In this document: positions 35,038 to 50,986 of the stretch, piece by piece
Numbering within the stretch: position 1 is the first letter of the stretch
How the letters are laid out: every line of letters begins with the position of its first letter
NCBI RefSeq assembly: GCF_032191835.1
Contig: NC_083236.1
Coordinates: 33,046,001 to 33,110,000, forward strand
DNA from: Heteronotia binoei
Taxonomy: Eukaryota
Direction of reading: 5' to 3'
Length of the DNA: 64,000 nt
Program-made: the position numbers and the translations under genes
The notes under the pieces: generated by a model
Database searches by the model: none
Told to the model about the DNA's origin: nothing
The model's input: the letters and a program-made list of their open reading frames with translations, nothing else

Positions 35038-35229
35038 CAGGGCTTTTTTTTGTAGAAAAAGCCCAGCAGGAACTCATTTGCATATTAGGCCATACTCCCT
35101 GACATCACCATGGTTTCACACAGGCTTTTTGGTAGAAAAAGCCCAACAGGAACTCATTTGCATATTAGGCCACACACCTCGACACCAAGCCAGCCGGAAC
35201 TGTGTTCCTCCTCAAAAAAAAAAGCCCCG
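35038..35229. mobile_element. hAT-type MITE (CAGGGCTTTTTT terminal repeat family)
   Basis: Ends CAGGGCTTTTTTTT and AAAAAAAAAGCCCCG. The 8-bp TSD GTCATAAC is at 35030-35037; its right copy is split by the copia insertion. Confidence 0.85.
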
Positions 35230-35233
35230 GTCA

Positions 35234-35631
35234 TGTCGGAGCGGGAGTAGCAGAGTGAGGGAGATGACTTGCCCGACACAGGGCTTCAGGAAAGAAAATC
35301 AGGCAGACACGTGCAACTAGTGCCAAAAGGTGTATTAACATATATACACAACAAGTGCTCTCTTGTGCAGTCTATACAATATCACCTCCACGGACAAAGT
35401 GCTTCGCCTAACCACCATCTCACAGGGAGAGACCTGTGTGATGCACACACAGATCATATATAGTCCAAGCAGCCAATCCTGGCCATGCTGACTCAGCAGA
35501 TTGCATCACTTGGCTTCTGCCGGCTCAAGCCGGTCTGCTGATCAGGTCACTGTGACCTAGCCTGGCAGCTAGATCACCAGCTGTCATACTGTGGCTGTCA
35601 GACTGGGTTTATGTAGATTCTTGCTCCAACA
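35234..35631 (-). repeat. 3' LTR of the copia element (398 bp)
   Basis: Identical to the 5' LTR and preceded on the minus strand by a purine-rich tract. Confidence 0.97.
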
Positions 35632-35642
35632 CACCTCCTAAT
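35632..35642 (-). promoter_or_regulatory. Polypurine tract (short)
   Basis: Minus strand ATTAGGAGGTG directly abuts the TG of the 3' LTR. Confidence 0.75.
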
Positions 35643-35716
35643 CTATTTAAACCCAGTGCACCAAAACACTTTACACAGTTTACATACATGTCCACCAGCA
35701 ACATTACAGTTCATAT

Positions 35717-38377
35717 TTACGTAGCTCGGAACCCTTTCCGGAATTCGTTCAGGAACTCATCATGATTGTAAAACACATCATCGTGTTCCTGTTCAGCCAG
35801 CTCTTTCAGACGCTTGGCTTCAGCCTCCTTCTCCCTTGCCTCGCACTCTGCCACCCAGGCTTTCCATTTCTTAGCCTTTTCTTTTAACATTTCCTCAAAT
35901 CCGGGTGGGTCTGGATTGACAGTCAGAGTGACATAGGGACACTTGTACCTAGCGGGACGTTGGCCTTTGGTGGACCTGGCAGACACCCGTGGCCCTGTGC
36001 TTGGACCAGCTTTGTCTTCTTCGGGTTGCTCTGTTCCCACCTCCTGGGCTGGTTGCTCTGCCCCTGTAATTGGGTGTTGAACCTCCTGACTCTCACACTT
36101 TACCTCCAGTTCCTGCATTTGAGGCTCTGCCTCCTGACTCTGCTCGTCAGGCTCTGTGCCAGCATTCGGCTCACCTTCTCCAGCCCCACTGGGTGCCACC
36201 TCCTGGGCTGGAGTTCTGGGCTGCGCTCCAACATCGTTATCGCTACTTGGCAGCAGGACAAATTGTTTCTGCAAGGAGTGCAACCTTGGCCAGCTGCTTT
36301 CTTCATTGAACTGGGCACTCTTATTAAGTGTTATCTTGCTTTTGCTATTGCAGAAACGATAACACCTGGCCCTTGGCTTGTAGCCCAGAAAAATTAGGCT
36401 CTCTGCCCGGACATCCCCCTCCCCGCTACTCGTGGAGTGGATGCCAACCCGAGCCCGTGACCCAAAGACTTTTAAAGAACTCAAATCTGGGGTCTTGTTC
36501 AACAGTAACCTGTAAGGCACATTTTTCACAGTATTACACCAAACCCTGTTTTGCAAAAAAACGGCTGCATGTATGGTTTCTGCCCAATAGGTCATTGGCA
36601 GTTGTGCATCCTCTAACATGCAATACATCACATTCTGCAATACAGCCCCATGCCCATTTTCTCGGGGCGTTGCTGGGTTCGTCAGACGGTGGGCAATGCC
36701 CTTGTTTTCCAGCCAACGTTTCATCTGGTTAGATAAGAATTCCCCCCCTCTGTCGGTTTGTACAGCTAGGAGATTAACCCCTAATTGTCTCTCCACTGCT
36801 TTGACCCACTTGGTGAATGTCTTATACACCTCAGACTTATGCACCATGGTGAAAACCCACGCGTACCTCGTGTGGTCGTCGGTGGCCACCAAGCAGTATC
36901 TCCTCCCCGACAGACTCTTTGGCAATGGGCCAATAACGTCTAAATGGACTAGTTCCAGGGCTCGTGTGCTTTCCCTTGAGCTTTCTTTAGCAACAGCACA
37001 CGCCTTGCTTTTGGTCTTCTTGCAGACCTGGCAATCCAAGTAACATTTGCAAGGATTTACTTTCAAACTAGGCACGAGCTCCAGGGTTTTCTTTAACGCC
37101 CTAAATCCGCAGTGCCCAAGTCTCCTATGGAGCAAATGTATACAATTATTGTGCACAGGCTCATTCGACACCTGAGCCACCTGGGCACAATCATTCTGGA
37201 CCACATACAGTTTACCTTCCCTCTTTCCTGTCACAAGCAACTTTCCCCCACCTCCCAGGATTTTGCAGCAGGTTTTCTCAAATCTCACCTGGTATCCCTG
37301 GTCAAACAGTGTGCTAACACTCAACAGGTTAGACTGCAGTGAGGGTACATACAACACATTTTGCAACATACATTTCAGTGCAGGAAATTCCACATTGCCT
37401 GAGCAAACAGAATTGGCAGTGGTCCCATCAGCCAATCTCACATACTTATGCTCAGGACTGTCAATGTTTTTCAACAACTCCTTCTCGCAGCAGAGATGGC
37501 TCGTTGCCCCGGAGTCTAAAATCCAAGCAGACCCTGTGCTCTCTACTGCAGACGTGACCAGCCGGGTTGCTTCCTCACACGGGCTGGCGGTCCTCCGCTC
37601 TCGCCGCACACGCCCCCGCCTCTTCTCCCTCTCAGGGCAAGCTCGGAGCAGGTGCTGCGACGACCCGCATCCATAGCAGCGACGGACTGCAAACGCAGTC
37701 GGCTCCACTTCCTCCACCTTCGGACGCCTGCCAGCAGCAAAAGCTGGCTCATTCTTGGCTGTCTTCCCGGACACACCGATAACAGCACGCTGCCTGGCCG
37801 ACACCCCCGGACAGCTCACGGCCGCAATTCTCTCTTGGAAGTCAAGCATGTGGGCACAGACGTATTCCATGGTCAGGGTCGCTACGTCCACCGTCTCCAG
37901 AGAAGTTATCAGGGGAGTGTACTCAGGTGGCAACGACGACAGCAAAATGTACACTCTGTCGTCTGGAGCTACAGTCTTGCCTCTTGCCTCCAGCTCAACG
38001 AAACAGTCCGTTAGCCGTTTGATGTGATCTTTCACACACCCTCCAGCCGGCATAACGGTGCGGAACATCCTCCTTGTCAAGGCCATGAGGGAACCAGCAG
38101 TGGTGCTAACATGCACCGCACTCAACGCGTCCCAGGCAGCCTTGGGAGTGTCCTTCCCTCGCACATAAACCAGCTGGTCATCTCCTATAGATAGCACTAT
38201 GTTGGCCAGTGCCTTATCCGATAACACAGTCTCGGCAGGAGATAAGTCAGCAGGGGGGTTACTCACGAACAGCCATTGCCCTTCACGCTTGAGGTAGTGT
38301 TGCATTCTCAGGCTCCACACCGCGTAGTTGGCTGAGGTGAGCTTCTCAACGGCTACTCCAAGCTGTTGCTGAGCCAT
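35717..38377 (-). CDS. Copia polyprotein Gag-zinc knuckle-protease-integrase, 886 aa, ending where RT would begin
   Basis: KLTSANYAVWSLRM gag N-terminus; CX2CX4HX4C (C234-C247); WILDSGATSH protease (D288); HHCC H417/H422/C449/C452; integrase D480 and D542. No YVDD RT motif and no RNase H. Confidence 0.95.
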   Translation of the reverse strand: MAQQQLGVAVEKLTSANYAVWSLRMQHYLKREGQWLFVSNPPADLSPAETVLSDKALANIVLSIGDDQLVYVRGKDTPKAAWDALSAVHVSTTAGSLMALTRRMFRTVMPAGGCVKDHIKRLTDCFVELEARGKTVAPDDRVYILLSSLPPEYTPLITSLETVDVATLTMEYVCAHMLDFQERIAAVSCPGVSARQRAVIGVSGKTAKNEPAFAAGRRPKVEEVEPTAFAVRRCYGCGSSQHLLRACPEREKRRGRVRRERRTASPCEEATRLVTSAVESTGSAWILDSGATSHLCCEKELLKNIDSPEHKYVRLADGTTANSVCSGNVEFPALKCMLQNVLYVPSLQSNLLSVSTLFDQGYQVRFEKTCCKILGGGGKLLVTGKREGKLYVVQNDCAQVAQVSNEPVHNNCIHLLHRRLGHCGFRALKKTLELVPSLKVNPCKCYLDCQVCKKTKSKACAVAKESSRESTRALELVHLDVIGPLPKSLSGRRYCLVATDDHTRYAWVFTMVHKSEVYKTFTKWVKAVERQLGVNLLAVQTDRGGEFLSNQMKRWLENKGIAHRLTNPATPRENGHGAVLQNVMYCMLEDAQLPMTYWAETIHAAVFLQNRVWCNTVKNVPYRLLLNKTPDLSSLKVFGSRARVGIHSTSSGEGDVRAESLIFLGYKPRARCYRFCNSKSKITLNKSAQFNEESSWPRLHSLQKQFVLLPSSDNDVGAQPRTPAQEVAPSGAGEGEPNAGTEPDEQSQEAEPQMQELEVKCESQEVQHPITGAEQPAQEVGTEQPEEDKAGPSTGPRVSARSTKGQRPARYKCPYVTLTVNPDPPGFEEMLKEKAKKWKAWVAECEAREKEAEAKRLKELAEQEHDDVFYNHDEFLNEFRKGFRAT

Positions 38378-38523
38378 CGTGCCGACTCCTCCTCACAGCT
38401 GGCTGCCGACGTCCCTCTGGCTCTCAAACAGAGAACGGTGGTGCTTCTGTGTCCTTCACCGGCGTTCCTCGCCTCCGGCTCTTTCCAAACTCACAGTCAG
38501 CTCAACTCTCAACTCTCTCCTCC

Positions 38524-38554
38524 GCGCAGCGGAACCGCCCTGGGCCCATAACCC
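38524..38554 (-). promoter_or_regulatory. Primer-binding site complementary to the 5' half of initiator tRNA-Met
   Basis: Minus strand GGGTTATGGGCCCAG immediately after the 5' LTR (the Drosophila copia-type half-tRNA PBS), extending to a 28/31 match with tRNAi-Met nt 10-40. Confidence 0.92.
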
Positions 38555-38952
38555 TGTCGGAGCGGGAGTAGCAGAGTGAGGGAGATGACTTGCCCGACAC
38601 AGGGCTTCAGGAAAGAAAATCAGGCAGACACGTGCAACTAGTGCCAAAAGGTGTATTAACATATATACACAACAAGTGCTCTCTTGTGCAGTCTATACAA
38701 TATCACCTCCACGGACAAAGTGCTTCGCCTAACCACCATCTCACAGGGAGAGACCTGTGTGATGCACACACAGATCATATATAGTCCAAGCAGCCAATCC
38801 TGGCCATGCTGACTCAGCAGATTGCATCACTTGGCTTCTGCCGGCTCAAGCCGGTCTGCTGATCAGGTCACTGTGACCTAGCCTGGCAGCTAGATCACCA
38901 GCTGTCATACTGTGGCTGTCAGACTGGGTTTATGTAGATTCTTGCTCCAACA
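38555..38952 (-). repeat. 5' LTR of the copia element (398 bp)
   Basis: No mismatch with 35234-35631 by eye; both copies give the same 64-aa spurious ORF in the track. Confidence 0.97.
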
Positions 38953-41186
38953 GGTCATAACCTATTCCACCTTCAACTAGCTACTTCCTCTAGAACAGGA
39001 AAGCGGCATCTGGAAAAAGGGTATGACCATGCCTTTGAAGCTGACCTTCTTCCACACAAGAGAAACACAGCACAGATATGCCCGTTATCCCTTTCTCCAG
39101 AGTTAAGGCATGATGCTGAAACTAGAAGAAAACTACAACTTGGATCAAACTAAGTCCCAGTAAAACTGGACTGCCCCCCATTCCAATTTTTAATCTGAAG
39201 TCTGGATTTTTTTAAAATTTGCAGATTAAGGATTATTTCATTCTCTCCCATGGGCACAAGAGGTGGGAAATGTACCACCTTTAGACTCAGCTGAAAGTTT
39301 AGAACCAGGATTAATGTGCTGAAAAGGAGCTGGGCCCACAAAGTCAAACTGCAAGGGTCATTTCTGCAGCCAATCAGGCTGGAAACTGATAAGCAGATGC
39401 TGGCTGAAAACCTACAAAATGGATGACTCAGGAAATCAAAACGCTCCCAGACATGAAGCAAATTTGTCCATTTTCAGGCCTTTTATCTCCAAGTTTACTT
39501 TGCAGAGGGAAACAATTGCCTTATTGACAAACCTGCTTTAACGTATGTTGGAAAAATTACAAGTCATTTTTTTATTTGGCTTTTTAAAACAAGAAGATCT
39601 AGAAGATCTTCCCCTTCCCACAAGCAGTTTGCTTTCCAACAGGGACGCAACACGGTAATTAACACTGGTCCCTATTGGCTGGAAGGGTCAGCAGGATCTC
39701 AGGGAAAAAAATAATTACTGTTTTAAATGAATTTTTAATAATTCTCTGAGAGGCTGGTTTTTCAAAAGAGACACATGAATAATGAACAAACCTATTTTTT
39801 TCCTTCTCAGTATCACAGCTCTACAATATTGGCCAGACCCCGCCCTTTGGAACAAACTGAAGTGCTTGATCTTGTATGCACTTTTGGCCTGCTGTGTGAG
39901 CAGAAGCTCCAGTGGGCTCAAAATACCCTGGAGGAGGAAGTCCCATGCTCTAGAGTGCTGGACAGTGCTTCATATGCACAATGAGAATGAGCACAAGCGT
40001 TCCCCAGTGCTGCAAATAACAGGGTGCCGTCTGTGACCGTGGGGCTCTGTGTGTACATCCAAAGCCTTGAGGAACCCTGGAGAATAACAGTGTTTTTAAG
40101 AGAGGAAGCCACTTTGGGGCAATAGCTTTTCAGAGAGACAGAAATGTAGCCAACTTCCCCGAAGGTATGTCAAAAATGTAACACAGTGAGCTGGATTTAA
40201 ACTAAATTGGCAATTTCCACTGCTTCTCCTTCCTGTCACAGACTCCCCCCAAAAAACTGCTCCTCAGGGTCCCCTATCTCCCCATGAGCAGCGTTTCATG
40301 GAGATCAGTGACCTGCAGGGGGAGAGGCGAGGCAGGAAAGTTCCAGTGTGCTGATGGAAAATTTTGTCTGGACCCAGCCCAGGTTCTCTAATAGAGCTTA
40401 ATGGCATCCCTGAGGAAGGCTAAGGCTGCTCCGGTACTTTTGTCATTCCGCACAATGTGCAAAACAGTAATGTTCAGGGGGACACTTTTAAAAAGACTTT
40501 AGAAGTGTAGCAGAATGGCCGAGAGGGCACTTTTATGATAGAACAGGATTGTAGTTAATGGCAATGATTATTCTAACCGTTATCCAGCTATTACCGCAAC
40601 GTCTTCACTGTGCTTTCTTTGTAACCCCACTCACTACTTCATCTACAATATCATCTTGTCTTAGGCAGTTTGCTGTTTGCATTGTCTTTTCATTCTGTAC
40701 TAATGCACCGTTCGTTGGCTTCCTTTGCTGTATGGATACGTTGTTTTTATCTGGCAACCTGCCTCAAGTCTCGGTGAGGCAGGGTATAAATAAATAAAGG
40801 GTATAAATAAATAAAGCAAACAAATACCCCCAGTGGAATGCATCTAGCCACTGCTGAAAGGGAGCTGCAATGTGCTATTACAGTTAGGTTCAGCAGCACT
40901 TTCCATGCTCCCAGGACTGAGCTCAAAGGGGACCATGGCCACCAACTAAGAAACAGTAAGGTGCTTCTTCTCCAGCTATGGGCTGGATCCTGTTGTCTTT
41001 TCCACTGGCAGCAGTGGGAAGAGAGGCCTCTTTGGACCACTGAAACAAGCTATGCTAGTAATCACAGGACCTACATGAACAAAAGCCAGGTGGGATGGGG
41101 GCAACAGTGAGGATGATAATCGGGTGAGACCAAACAGAAAAATTGATAGGATACACCCCAGACTGTGAAGAATACATGCCTCATGT

Positions 41187-41386
41187 CAGGGCTTTTTTGG
41201 TAGAAAAAGCCCAGCAGGAACTCATTTGCATATTAGGCCACACCCTCGATGCCACCATTGTTTCACACAGGGTTTTTGTAGAAAAAGGCCAGCGGGAACT
41301 CATTTGCATATTAGGCCATGCCTCCCTGACACCAAACCAGCTGGGAATGTATACCTGCGTGTTCCTGCTAAAAAAAAAGAGTCCTG
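41187..41386. mobile_element. hAT-type MITE, same family
   Basis: Same terminal repeats and the internal duplicated GGAACTCATTTGCATATTAGGCC unit; flanks CCTCATGT/ACTCATGC (6/8). Confidence 0.8.
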
Positions 41387-41884: not shown

Positions 41885-43286
41885 CTGTAATGGAAGATGC
41901 ATGAATAACAGCAGATAAGATCAAGTAGAGACAGAATAGAGCTACACTGATTTGAAAAAGCCCCATACTCATGGGCGGGATGTGCAACAGTGTGGTACAG
42001 CCTGATCTCGTCAGATCTCGGAAGCTGAGCGGGATCACTACTTGGATGGGAGAAGCCACCTAGGAAGACTCTGCAGAGGAAGGACCTCTGTTTCTCACCT
42101 GCTCTGAAAGCCCCTTGCCGAGGTCACTGTAAGTCTGTTGCAACTTGTGGCCATATACATTTTACTTTATAGAGAGACAGTGAGATACAGAGAGAAGCAA
42201 GTTTTTTGTACTATACCAACATATTTATTATACCATCCTTTGCTCTGATCAAGCTGATTTCATTTTCCATTTTCCATTGTACCTTTGGATCCTGGTTCCC
42301 AACAGGTCCTTCTTGGTAACACCCCACCCACCATCTGTCCTGGGTATAAGAGATGATGGATCTTCATTCTTGTTTCTATCTGACCAAGTGAGATTTGACT
42401 CATGAAAGCTTATGCCCTAAAAAATTGTGTTGGTCTCTAAGGTGCTGCTTTAATTTTATTAAATTTTATTAAGATTCACATAGGGACCAACATCTTTCCA
42501 AGCAATACAATAAGAAAATAATCTATATCATTTAAAATATTTCAACTGTAGTCTCTTAAAAAACAGAAAAACAAATTAAAATGGACTTGCCAACAAGGGG
42601 CAGGGAGTGAGAAAGCAAAAAAAATGAGAAAAATATTTCATTAACTTTATATAGATCAAACTGATGTTGCAACAACAGCTATGAACATATGAAGCTGCCT
42701 TACACTGAATCAGACCCTCGGTCCATCAAAGTCAGTATTTCCGTGCCTATTTGCCAGGACCCTTTTTAGCTGGAGATGCCAGGGATTGAACCTGGGACCT
42801 TCAGCTTACCAAGCAGATGCTCTACCACTGAGCCACCGTTTCTCCCCTACAGTTACCAAAGATGCAATACTGACATCATTGCAGGAATTTCCTTTTGTTC
42901 TTAGAAATATTCTAAAATAGGATACCAAACTGTTATGAAATCATTATAATCAGTGTTGTCTGTGTCTTCTGTTTTTGATAAGTCATGCTGAACTCGAATT
43001 TTATATATATATATATATATATACACATATATTTGCTGCCTCTCTCTCTCTCCCTCTGATTCTTACACAAAATGATAAACCCTGAATCAAAGTTGCATAA
43101 TCCCAGTAAGAGACTCAGGCCCTCATATGATTGGACAAAGACAACCCAAGACCCAGCATCACAACGGAGACCTGGGATTACCTTCTTCATGTCTTGGCTG
43201 TGAGTGTACCAAGAGAATCGGGCTTGCAGGAGTGCTAAGCCAAGTGAAACAAGGCAACTTGCAAGGGGAAAAAATCTGAAACTTAC

Positions 43287-48365: not shown

Positions 48366-50743
48366 TCAGCAACAGACTGGCTAAGCATCCCTGGAACATT
48401 CTGTTAACGTAAAATAAAAAGTTTACACGCAAAACTGTAACTAGCTTTGCACACGGTCTCAGTGGGAAAAAACATAAATCCTACGGGCTTGTTCAGATGT
48501 AACAGTGGCTCTGATCTTGTAAGATTTGTTATGGTGGATTTTAATTTTAAAAAATCTGAACACTTCATTACATGATTCAGTTGGTATCAGTCCTAAATAA
48601 CAAAACAATTTATGACATGTCAAAACGTTATAATTTACATTAAAATATGGTTGACATCTTCAGCTGTAAGTCTCCAGTTGTAGAATAAGATGGTAACTCT
48701 GCTCAAATAATCAATCAATCTTTATTATCACGACCCAAGATCAGCATATATATCGGCAATCGTGTAAACATTTTGCTCAAATAAAAAGGCTAACCTTTTC
48801 CATTTAATTTATGTATACATCAAATGTTGAATTTAACAAGAAAAGAAAAAAACTTGGCTGATCTTTAACTGTAATAAATTATTGATGGATGTATATATCA
48901 ATCGCAGCAATTGTACAAACATGCGTTTTCTCTTACAAAAAAATTAGCACGTTTAAAAGGGACTGCTCCTCTACACATTACCTTGCTTTATTGCAAAATA
49001 AGATTCAAGTATCTACGATCTCTATGTTTTCTCAATGTGTCAAAAGAACAACCCGATAAGATTTGAATCTTAAGTCTGATTAATGTTTATCGCTGGCCAC
49101 TGCCAAAAAGCTCTTGGGATGTTCCAGCCCATTACTGTAGAATTTAACTACTATGTGTTTTCCTATCAGATTTTTGATACACAGGCTGGTTCCACACTAG
49201 TTGTTTAGTCTGGAAATAGCATAAATTGTTAATTTTTCTGTTCTTAATTTAAAAACAAACAAACAAAGGAATTCCAGTGCGGTTAACCTACTGTGTTTCA
49301 GTGTTTTTCTATGTTCTTTTCCTGAGTGTTTTCAGATCTGACTTCGGAATTCAGACTTCTGCTGAAGGAGATGTATTTCTAAGCATACATATATCAGGGT
49401 CTTTACTCTTGATGGGGTCCACACAGCCACATTTTTAAAGCAAATATAGCGCTATATTAAATGCAATATGGGACCCTCACTTTTGCTTGCACCTTAATGT
49501 GGAAAAGGGACCCTTTGCTGTATGAAACTACCCCTTGATTTCAGTCTAAGTGCTTCTATTCTGGTCCTCCGGCAAATAAAGCGGTTCACCACATTCCAGT
49601 AAAGGCAACCAACATCTTTCTCTCTCCAAACATTAAATGGTGTTATTCTTGCCAAGGCTAAGAGGCTGGGAGCCAGCCATGGGAAGCACATGCACCACAG
49701 CACAAATCTTACGGCTAATCCAGATTCCCATTTAACAAGTTGTGGAAGAGGCCAGATTCTTGTAAAGAATTTCAGAATCTGGGTTAAGAAGAATTCCTGG
49801 TCGGACTTAAGCATGAATTAAGGATGGCGCTAACATGTGCTTTAAATTCTCCTTAAAGTGGGAGAGGTGAATTTGTTTTCCTAGACGAGAGGGCGTATGG
49901 TGTTCCCGCAACTGACTCCTGATCTCTTAACAGCAGTTGGAAGCTATCGAAACCATTTTGTCTGTGATGGCCCAAGAGGAAAGACATTACTCCCCATTCC
50001 ATCCTAGGTATTTATTAAATATGCACACTACTGGGGAAAAGTCCTCACAATGTAACACAAACTACTGCCATTTTTTAAAAGCACAAAGACGTTATCATAC
50101 AGTGCAACAACTCTGTGCGGTGGTGGAAAGTGCCATCAAGTCAAAGCTGACTTATAGCGACCCCGTAGGGTTTTCAAGGCAAGAGATGGACAGAGGCGGT
50201 TTGCCATTGCCTGCCTCCGTGTGGTAACCTGGTATTCCCTGGAGGTCTGCCATCCATTTACTTCGCTTCAAAGACCTGACGAGATCAGGCTTGCCTGGGC
50301 TATCCCAGTCACAGCACAACAATTCAAGTAAATCATATATAATGAAAATCAAGTAAAACGATAAGGGTCAACTGTATTTGTGAGAATGGGGCAAACAAGC
50401 TTAGTTTCTATGCTTTATTTCAAAACTGGCAATTTAATTCTTTTGCAGCTGGCACATTACAATTTTATTTTAGTTTATTTTGCAAAAAGCAGTAAAGGCA
50501 GCAGGAGAGAAAGGATCTGGGTGCAGGAACATAACGCAGAGGCCACAAGGGAACAACAAAGACCAAGGGAAGGAACAGACCGGCTGCTGTCACTGACACT
50601 GCCGGCACATTCCTAAACAACTCCTCCCACTATTGACAAAGTTAAACTGGAGCTTGAAAGTCTCAGGAATCCCTACACTGGTATAATTTACAGCAAGCAA
50701 CATCAGAGATCCTGTCTCTCTTTAGGCGAGGGGAGCCTGCTAT

Positions 50744-50986
50744 GAACTGGCCAATTCACTCCCTGGGATCCACATGTGCAAGCAAGGCACTGAGACCAAG
50801 CTAGAACTAGCATTGACAACATACCAGGTGTTTGTTCACTTGGCTCCAAAGCACAAGAATTAAGAACTGGCCAATTCACTCCCTGGGATCCACATGTGCA
50901 AGCAAGGCACTGAGACCAAGCTAGAACAAGCATTGACAACATACCAGGTGTTTGTTCACTTGGCTCCAAAGCACAAGAATTAAGAA
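50744..50986. repeat. 120-bp direct tandem duplication
   Basis: Copies start at 50744 and 50864 and differ at one position (ACTAG vs ACAAG). Confidence 0.95.

Follow-up and report, generated by a model that had tools for sequence, protein, structure and literature searches.

The primer site analysed here lies in a 3,719-bp LTR element on the minus strand of the window, as we call the whole 64-kb stretch of Heteronotia binoei DNA that we studied; all features of the element are given on that strand. Its 5' LTR (38555-38952) and 3' LTR (35234-35631) are both 398 bp long, run from TG to CA and are identical to each other. A 5-bp target-site duplication flanks the element, at 38953-38957 on the 5' LTR side and at 35229-35233 on the 3' LTR side, and such a duplication was present in 86 of the 89 testable sisters from the same subfamily, A1. 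Paired TG...CA LTRs with a 5-bp duplication are as found in Ty1/copia LTR retrotransposons. A purine-rich tract before the 3' LTR (35632-35648) is the likely plus-strand primer.

The single open reading frame (35717-38377) encodes 886 amino acids from its first ATG and carries PF14223, PF22936, PF13976 and PF00665, that is, copia Gag, protease and integrase. It has no reverse transcriptase or RNase H, and the window copy is a short, non-autonomous form. Longer sisters, of about 4.8 kb, have an RT/RNase H region after integrase, and hits of that region bear PF07727; with the RT region taken from these sisters, the order is that of copia, Gag-protease-integrase with integrase before reverse transcriptase. 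Subfamily A1 occupies 643 sites in the 2.63-Gb genome and is very young, its LTR pairs showing no mismatch in 88 of 97 cases. The short form accounts for 87 of the 97 A1 copies with an LTR pair, and the other 10 exceed 4.7 kb. Most short copies keep the 886-aa frame open, and their integrase region has diverged from that of the long form. The closest named protein in our tree came from the lizard Podarcis lilfordi. With no protein-search hit exceeding 40% identity, the element could not be matched to a named one.

Elsewhere in the window we noted a 62-nt host repeat in four copies, arranged in two pairs (35046-35187 and 41194-41333), one pair about 45 nt from the 3' LTR; tandem arrays with 114-nt and 120-nt units (2121-2463 and 50741-50980); and, at 42771-42843 on the minus strand, a tRNA-Thr called by ARAGORN that looks more like the head of a tRNA-derived SINE.

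A 31-nt match to the initiator tRNA

We found five tRNA-Met(CAT) genes in the same genome: L031, L033, L036 and L037 are identical over the gene, and L032 has one difference. Positions are numbered along the gene and from nt 17 on are one below the standard numbering. Against these genes, the primer site matches nt 10-40 at 28 of 31 positions in blocks of 11 and 15 nt. The 15-nt core (38540-38554) is complementary to nt 26-40, in the anticodon arm, and the distal 11-nt block (38524-38534) is complementary to nt 10-20, in the D-arm, ending beside G9. Between them, five letters (38535-38539) hold three mismatches, at tRNA nt 21, 24 and 25 (window positions 38535, 38538 and 38539). The core directly adjoins the LTR start at 38555 and contacts the anticodon arm, not the CCA end, as in half-tRNA priming of the copia/Ty5 type. 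Inside the LTR, a 15-nt linker (38555-38569), the first template to be copied, separates the core from a U5 block (38570-38578) whose RNA is complementary to tRNA nt 1-9. All this reads as claimed in the original prediction, which had been made from the sequence of the window alone; the tRNA sequence that it used was correct, and all five genes agree with it. Its estimate of 2e-4 for finding the U5 9-mer by chance is valid only for a 9-mer fixed in advance; any tRNA 9-mer would be easier to match.

The match of the primer site exceeds chance. The pattern formed by the 11-mer, five free letters and the 15-mer occurs at 1,044 genome sites, versus 0 for a reversed control; among the pattern matches listed, 30 of 30 were element sites and 0 were with a tRNA gene. 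A broader search of the genome, for a core and an LTR start with the distal block not required, gave 1,318 sites, and the first 100, which we fetched, comprised 61 copies of family A (six subfamilies), 38 of families B-F and one of family G. Protease-integrase sequences of A and B are about 41% alike, and in the protease-integrase tree families A and G group with B-F in a single clade (FastTree support, 98). The colinear match spans nt 10-40 in families A-F. Hence the 11-nt block, whose conservation had been proposed as a check, is present across this protein distance, and it is intact in 98 of 100 A1 sisters. B-F sites match perfectly as a rule, and CpG-type decay accounts for 24 of the 34 deviations seen in nt 10-25 over 36 rows (two out-of-register rows excluded). 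Family G has just the 15-nt core, with the D-arm block at 0 of 29 sites (30 loci examined, one lacking the core), so the clade does not need the D-arm extension. The leader beside the core in family G (L313-L342) is a variable tandem array of units of about 8-9 nt, many with a 5-nt match to tRNA nt 2-6; possibly, these arrays offer the tRNA 5' end several landing sites.

How unusual is a site of this length? Scanning metagenomes for an anticodon-arm core with an LTR start gave 122 loci and 123 sites, part of about 1,700 stretches, and copia protein hits accompanied 48 of the 123 sites. The core was 14 nt long (nt 26-39) at 122 of them, and at least 12 of nt 10-25 were matched in register at only 1 of 123, a comparison based on the Heteronotia binoei tRNA with one change allowed, so that sites in hosts whose D-arm differs may be undercounted. 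The 14-nt form also occurs at 20 sites of the same genome, 5 of them with copia hits. The window site is 31 nt long and its core ends at nt 40, where the usual core is about 14 nt and ends at nt 39; it is indeed unusually extended, as had been predicted.

Shorter D-arm blocks, of 8-9 nt from nt 10 or 11, were found at 4 of 109 distinct metagenome sites versus 0.26 expected, and two of the four sites are confirmed copia. The D-arm blocks seen in L188, L206, L269, L278 and L199 are mostly one base out of register; that of L199 is colinear, at 13 of 16. Separately, L295 and L345 show a decayed colinear match to tRNA nt 1-39 abutting a TGTTG start, with no copia hit, LTR pair or tRNA call; this could be the whole 5' half captured by read-through, or else an old tRNA pseudogene into which something inserted or beside which an insertion lies. 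A scan of viral contigs gave a single hit, which was a tRNA gene.

The U5 block and the far edge of the site

The 9-mer of the U5 block occurs twice in the 64 kb, once per LTR (35249-35257 and 38570-38578). It is in place in 99 of 100 A1 copies, with a one-base shift in the remaining one, and matches at 8-9 of 9 letters in 15 of 16 other family-A copies; in families B-F we did not find it. Its conservation is 0.90 versus an LTR mean of 0.77, a value equalled by 18% of LTR windows. Perhaps the block is an ordinary strand of a stem between U5 and leader, its tRNA likeness a chance kept by descent? According to RNAalifold, seven of the nine letters pair with the leader and the far end of the primer site in 15-17 of the 17 rows of family A, and such an internal stem could explain the block. 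The leader strand predicted to pair with it in free RNA (38517-38525) itself resembles the tRNA 5' end. The alignment fold showed no compensatory change in this stem, which varies at the partners of nt 8 and nt 1. The absence of the block from B-F and the many LTR windows that are equally conserved also favour this explanation, as does the geometry: a contact with the tRNA would be non-nested, spanned by the 15-nt linker, and cofolding cannot model it for that reason. In metagenomes, moreover, a U5 match of at least 6 nt was found at 7 of 116 sites, near background.

Yet the stem retains a U.G wobble in 17 of 17 rows, at a place where pairing with the tRNA would be U-A, and the same letters, beginning at nt 1 or 2, turn up at other U5 positions (6, 13-18 and 32-33) in lineages G, H and I. 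Family G matches nt 1-6 in U5 in 27 of 29 copies versus 0 of 29 in the next 50 nt. In all, 4 of 12 confirmed copia lineages, which are not fully independent, have a U5 match of at least 6 nt to tRNA nt 1-9 (p of about 0.004 at a 6% background); two of the four have a 14-nt core and lie closer to a different copia clade. This count excludes L297 and L311 (9- and 8-nt U5 matches), which have no copia hit or LTR pair within 7 kb, and likewise other unconfirmed 14-nt sites. Lineages with a recurring U5 match usually have a weaker internal leader partner too. We give the explanation by an internal stem alone a little less than an even chance.

The predicted duplex of the U5 block with tRNA nt 1-9 reaches -14.7 kcal/mol versus -11.3 for the tRNA acceptor stem, modifications being ignored; in family A its advantage over the leader duplex is only 0.5-2 kcal/mol. 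G9 is probably methylated, by analogy with the human tRNA, and would be unable to pair with the block. We lean slightly towards a true contact of the U5 block with tRNA nt 1-8. The primer activation signal (PAS) of HIV-1 is masked by a U5-leader stem. With about the same modest leaning, we suggest that the U5 block would behave alike, sitting in the U5-leader stem in free RNA and swapping to tRNA nt 1-8 after primer binding. Complementarity and a predicted stem, as a PAS-like switch would have, are both present, with no compensatory change and with the motif in those 4 of 12 lineages. Hence the conservation predicted for the 9-nt block holds within family A, and the motif recurs in other lineages; it fails in B-F, and what is conserved fits an internal stem as well.

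Two further U5 matches were set aside. A 9-nt match to tRNA nt 37-45, seen in just 6 of 20 family-B copies and not conserved, was taken as chance. The metagenome loci L191, L218, L220, L230, L233, L236 and L239 belong to one lineage in which 7-8 nt of U5, at LTR position 9, match tRNA nt 11-18; with 6 near-copies among 110 distinct sites (shuffle, 0.7%), this single lineage is not significant.

At its other end the site stops sharply. The letter for nt 10 is matched in 60 of 61 family-A and 36 of 39 non-A copies, that for nt 9 in 0 of 61 and 36 of 39, and that for nt 8 in 0 of 61 and 3 of 39. In human tRNAi-Met, m1G9 is nearly full, and m2G10 and m2G26 were undetected by reverse transcription (PMC7293042). 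If m1G9 carries over from the human tRNA, G9 would be the first base to block pairing on the way back from nt 40, and it is there that the match ends. A retroviral primer site ends where m1A58 stops plus-strand synthesis (PMC13191261). We think it likely on balance that copying would stop at m1G9 and so fix the far edge, with the 11-nt block as a landing pad.

The border between nt 9 and 10 is also that of the D-stem, so a structural cause for the edge has to be weighed. The intact tRNA might anneal through nt 9/10-40 with its acceptor/T half still folded and be cut later, the primer being inherited all the same. A cofold of the window copy with the whole tRNA keeps the 3' part folded and is still favourable, at about -15 kcal/mol; the site edge coincides with the start of the D-stem; and G9 itself is matched in the non-A copies just counted, one letter beyond a clean m1G9 stop and odd if G9 cannot pair. 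Such annealing gives no account, however, of where plus-strand copying of the freed 5' fragment would stop. None of the 27 A1 copies converted to tRNA letters (below) has gained tRNA nt 1-9 in register, and the D-arm block starts at nt 10 or 11 in four metagenome elements. We consider a purely structural edge rather unlikely.

tRNA alleles among sister copies

Retrovirus-type inheritance of a primer is recognized by parental and tRNA alleles that occur among sister copies independently of lineage. Taking the first 100 of the 643 A1 sites as a sister set, we observed this pattern (73 versus 27). The middle five letters were of the element type in 73 copies and of the full tRNA type in 19; seven had the tRNA letter at nt 21 alone, one had it at nt 21 and 24, and no other form occurred. 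The minor alleles at nt 21, 24 and 25 (27, 20 and 19 copies) were always the tRNA letter. Elsewhere in the 31-nt site we found two singletons, both at nt 10; a reading of them as strand-transfer errors is only suggestive (p 0.08). The background minor-allele rate is 0.46% per site. Misreading of a modified G26 was dismissed as the source of the variants, which are all exact tRNA letters in the 100 copies; m2G is silent in reverse transcription.

The nt 21 allele was unlinked to 25 of 25 other markers (lowest p, 0.059). Carriers of markers 26, 46 and about 92 nt away were of the tRNA type in 2 of 5, 3 of 8 and 4 of 9 cases, each marker occurring with both site types, and D' for these three was 0.14-0.24 versus a mean of 0.81 for 27 other marker pairs less than 100 nt apart. 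tRNA-type copies did not cluster, their nearest neighbours being of the tRNA type at 0.086 versus 0.263 by shuffle. The pairs L086/L416 and L394/L403 differ at 1 position in about 1,900 nt outside the site, yet have unlike site types. Both types were also found in 4 of 4 subfamilies with at least three copies (A2, A3 and A4 besides A1). Because the mismatches switch only to tRNA letters and do so without linkage to their neighbours, the primer was likely copied into plus-strand DNA and inherited. These sequence comparisons thus make it likely that a half-tRNA primer is inherited here in the style of a retrovirus, which the A1 sisters show and the Ty1/Ty3 type, where primer sequence is not inherited, would not. 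The probable inheritance of a primer by a half-tRNA copia is the best-supported new point of this work, and the long site, whose significance the original prediction missed, is best read as the imprint of a primer copied into plus-strand DNA.

Partial types were polar, with 8 distal-only versus 0 proximal-only copies (p 0.008); the older copy L133 runs contrary to this polarity, with the tRNA letter at nt 24 only. The polarity would fit mismatch repair of the plus strand that starts upstream and leaves a C:C mismatch behind. The conversion rate is at most 27%, versus 50% under simple segregation. Linkage between A1 markers is lost beyond about 100 nt in the 100 copies, pointing to very frequent template switching in this young subfamily. 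With markers recombining so freely, the lineage tests are weakened and inheritance is a statistical inference in which no intermediate was observed. It is demonstrated to nt 21 only, as no young family has a mismatch in nt 10-20 that could report more.

What, then, maintains the mismatches? The element-type site is kept in 5 of 6 family-A subfamilies, whose proteins outside A1 are 55-82% alike to the window copy. C21 is fixed in 10 of 10 unconverted A2-A5 copies, and the nt 25 letter is C, T or A by subfamily and never the tRNA's G in unconverted copies. The mismatched type is also kept in contigs from RNA sequencing runs, one each from two other organisms, A and C (records 6 and 18), which have at most one unlisted difference each, whereas a tRNA-type site needs three; these runs, from other organisms and with at most 0.32 of words present, are silent on expression in this host. 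Conversion being one-way, converted copies must leave fewer offspring if the element-type site is to survive, and its persistence in five subfamilies suggests that a perfect duplex is likely disfavoured in family A. We consider it reasonably likely that fully matched copies would leave fewer offspring in this family and that the mismatches would thereby survive one-way conversion. As candidate causes of a cost in family A and not in B-F, the mismatches may form a hinge for the U5 contact, ease release of the primer or help the element to evade host tRNA fragments. We also considered, as a reason for the mismatches, a hairpin that joins the middle five letters to the U5 linker; it appears in some single folds, is absent from the alignment fold, shows no covariation and is not supported.

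Among these causes, the mismatches might be kept to escape host 5' tRNA fragments that silence or block the element, and for no structural reason. The same trade-off has been put forward for mouse ERVs, in which mismatched primer sites are the commonest (PMC7472051), and the free variation of nt 25 among subfamilies, short of the tRNA's own letter, would suit it. Against this, B-F spread with a perfect site, most of its departures being decay. We regard escape as the sole reason as doubtful. That the tRNA-type copies instead came from a separate master, or from template switching to co-packaged B-F RNA, and spread by recombination with no copying of the primer, could draw on the frequent recombination and on the perfect sites that are the rule in B-F, but it is very improbable: it asks for two switches within about 25-90 nt in one copy out of four, and anew in every subfamily; converted copies never have the G9 or the flanks of B-F; B-F, with no identical LTR pair among the copies fetched, are older than A1; and the unclustered tRNA-type copies and near-identical sisters of differing type in the 100-copy linkage data largely refute it.

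We return to inheritance of a copied primer, whose base is the complementarity, the sharp nt 9/10 edge across families and the unlinked tRNA alleles that 27 of the 100 sisters carry. The D- and anticodon arms of the tRNA would unfold onto the 31-nt site, with a cut after C40. The primer would need its 3' end at nt 40, in the anticodon stem. Common stress tRNA halves, with their cut in the anticodon loop, could block the site but not serve as its primer. Very probably, plus-strand synthesis would run through the primer to at least nt 21, and strand transfer would then create a three-mismatch heteroduplex resolved by host repair or replication. On the whole we regard as probable that the site belongs to a young copia element primed from a tRNA fragment cut after nt 40, that the fragment is copied into the plus strand, probably to a methylated G9, and that some copies inherit it. 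Beyond this we infer, with confidence falling in this order, that copying stops at m1G9, that selection favours the mismatches and that U5 acts as a switch. Only tentatively do we propose the full picture, of a vertebrate copia that would clamp the whole 5' half of tRNAi-Met (nt 10-40 at the site, nt 1-8 by the U5 switch), stop at a TRMT10A-type m1G9 and hold its mismatches by selection versus a conversion that rewrites about one-quarter of new copies.

If that picture is true, each genome would record on its fresh insertions where the primer was cut, how it was modified and in which direction host repair ran. Already, A1 provides a genomic read-out from hundreds of fresh copies: a likely primer 3' end at nt 40, proof of principle for copying to at least nt 21 and a candidate stop at m1G9. 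Family A would also provide a clean example of selection holding mismatches in a primer site, and a transposon now spreading in a vertebrate germ line would be tied to a tRNA methyltransferase target and to a non-standard tRNA cut.

Relation to known priming systems

In the literature that we searched, plus-strand completion in half-tRNA-primed elements is unaddressed; a 5' fragment has no m1A58 stop, and the yeast elements that have been studied do not inherit the primer. The search found no 31-nt half-tRNA site, no primer inheritance by a half-tRNA copia and no m1G9 stop, although Repbase primer-site tables may show the site. Squamates are the copia-rich vertebrates, and their copia elements are those named Mtanga (PMC11889832). 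The window family resembles Mtanga-clade elements in its high copy number and its nearest named protein, from Podarcis lilfordi; our protease-integrase tree contained no Mtanga reference, and the accessible text of PMC11889832 is without the word primer.

Half-tRNA priming itself is already known; what sets this site apart is its length and the probable inheritance of its primer. The anticodon arm of the initiator tRNA pairs beside the 5' LTR in Drosophila copia, in yeast Ty5 and in the plant elements Osser, Bryco and Gymco-II, where it is described as 1/2 tRNA-Met (PMC10886601, PMC6317226, PMC10275265); for none of these elements did the papers searched describe primer inheritance. The window site likewise contacts the anticodon arm directly beside the 5' LTR; unlike the usual half-tRNA site of 14 nt to nt 39, it takes 31 nt to nt 40. 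With such priming known in copia, and squamates rich in copia copies, the unfolding or cleavage of a tRNA in a vertebrate is not new in kind, and the weight that the original prediction placed on that step was overstated. Ty1 and Ty3 have extended or bipartite primer sites, with extra tRNAi-Met contacts outside the core (PMC5371799). The A1 site resembles theirs in having additional contacts beyond the core, and its inheritance signature is the opposite of theirs.

The U5 block invites comparison with the HIV-1 PAS, which lies upstream of the primer site and is complementary to a different part of the primer tRNA (PMC13191261). The PAS pairs with the T arm, whereas for the U5 block the partner would be the 5' acceptor strand, in a tRNA that has been cut. 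Primer sequence is inherited in HIV and MLV and not in Ty1 or Ty3 (PMC7472051, a review, and PMC5371799), and in trees of mouse ETn/MusD, scattered perfect sites have been read as primer inheritance (PMC7472051). Compared with HIV-1, MLV and mouse ETn/MusD/IAP, the element here is a copia and its primer an internal 5' fragment; and where retroviruses copy 18 nt up to m1A58, the likely stop here is m1G9, with a copied stretch of up to 31 nt.
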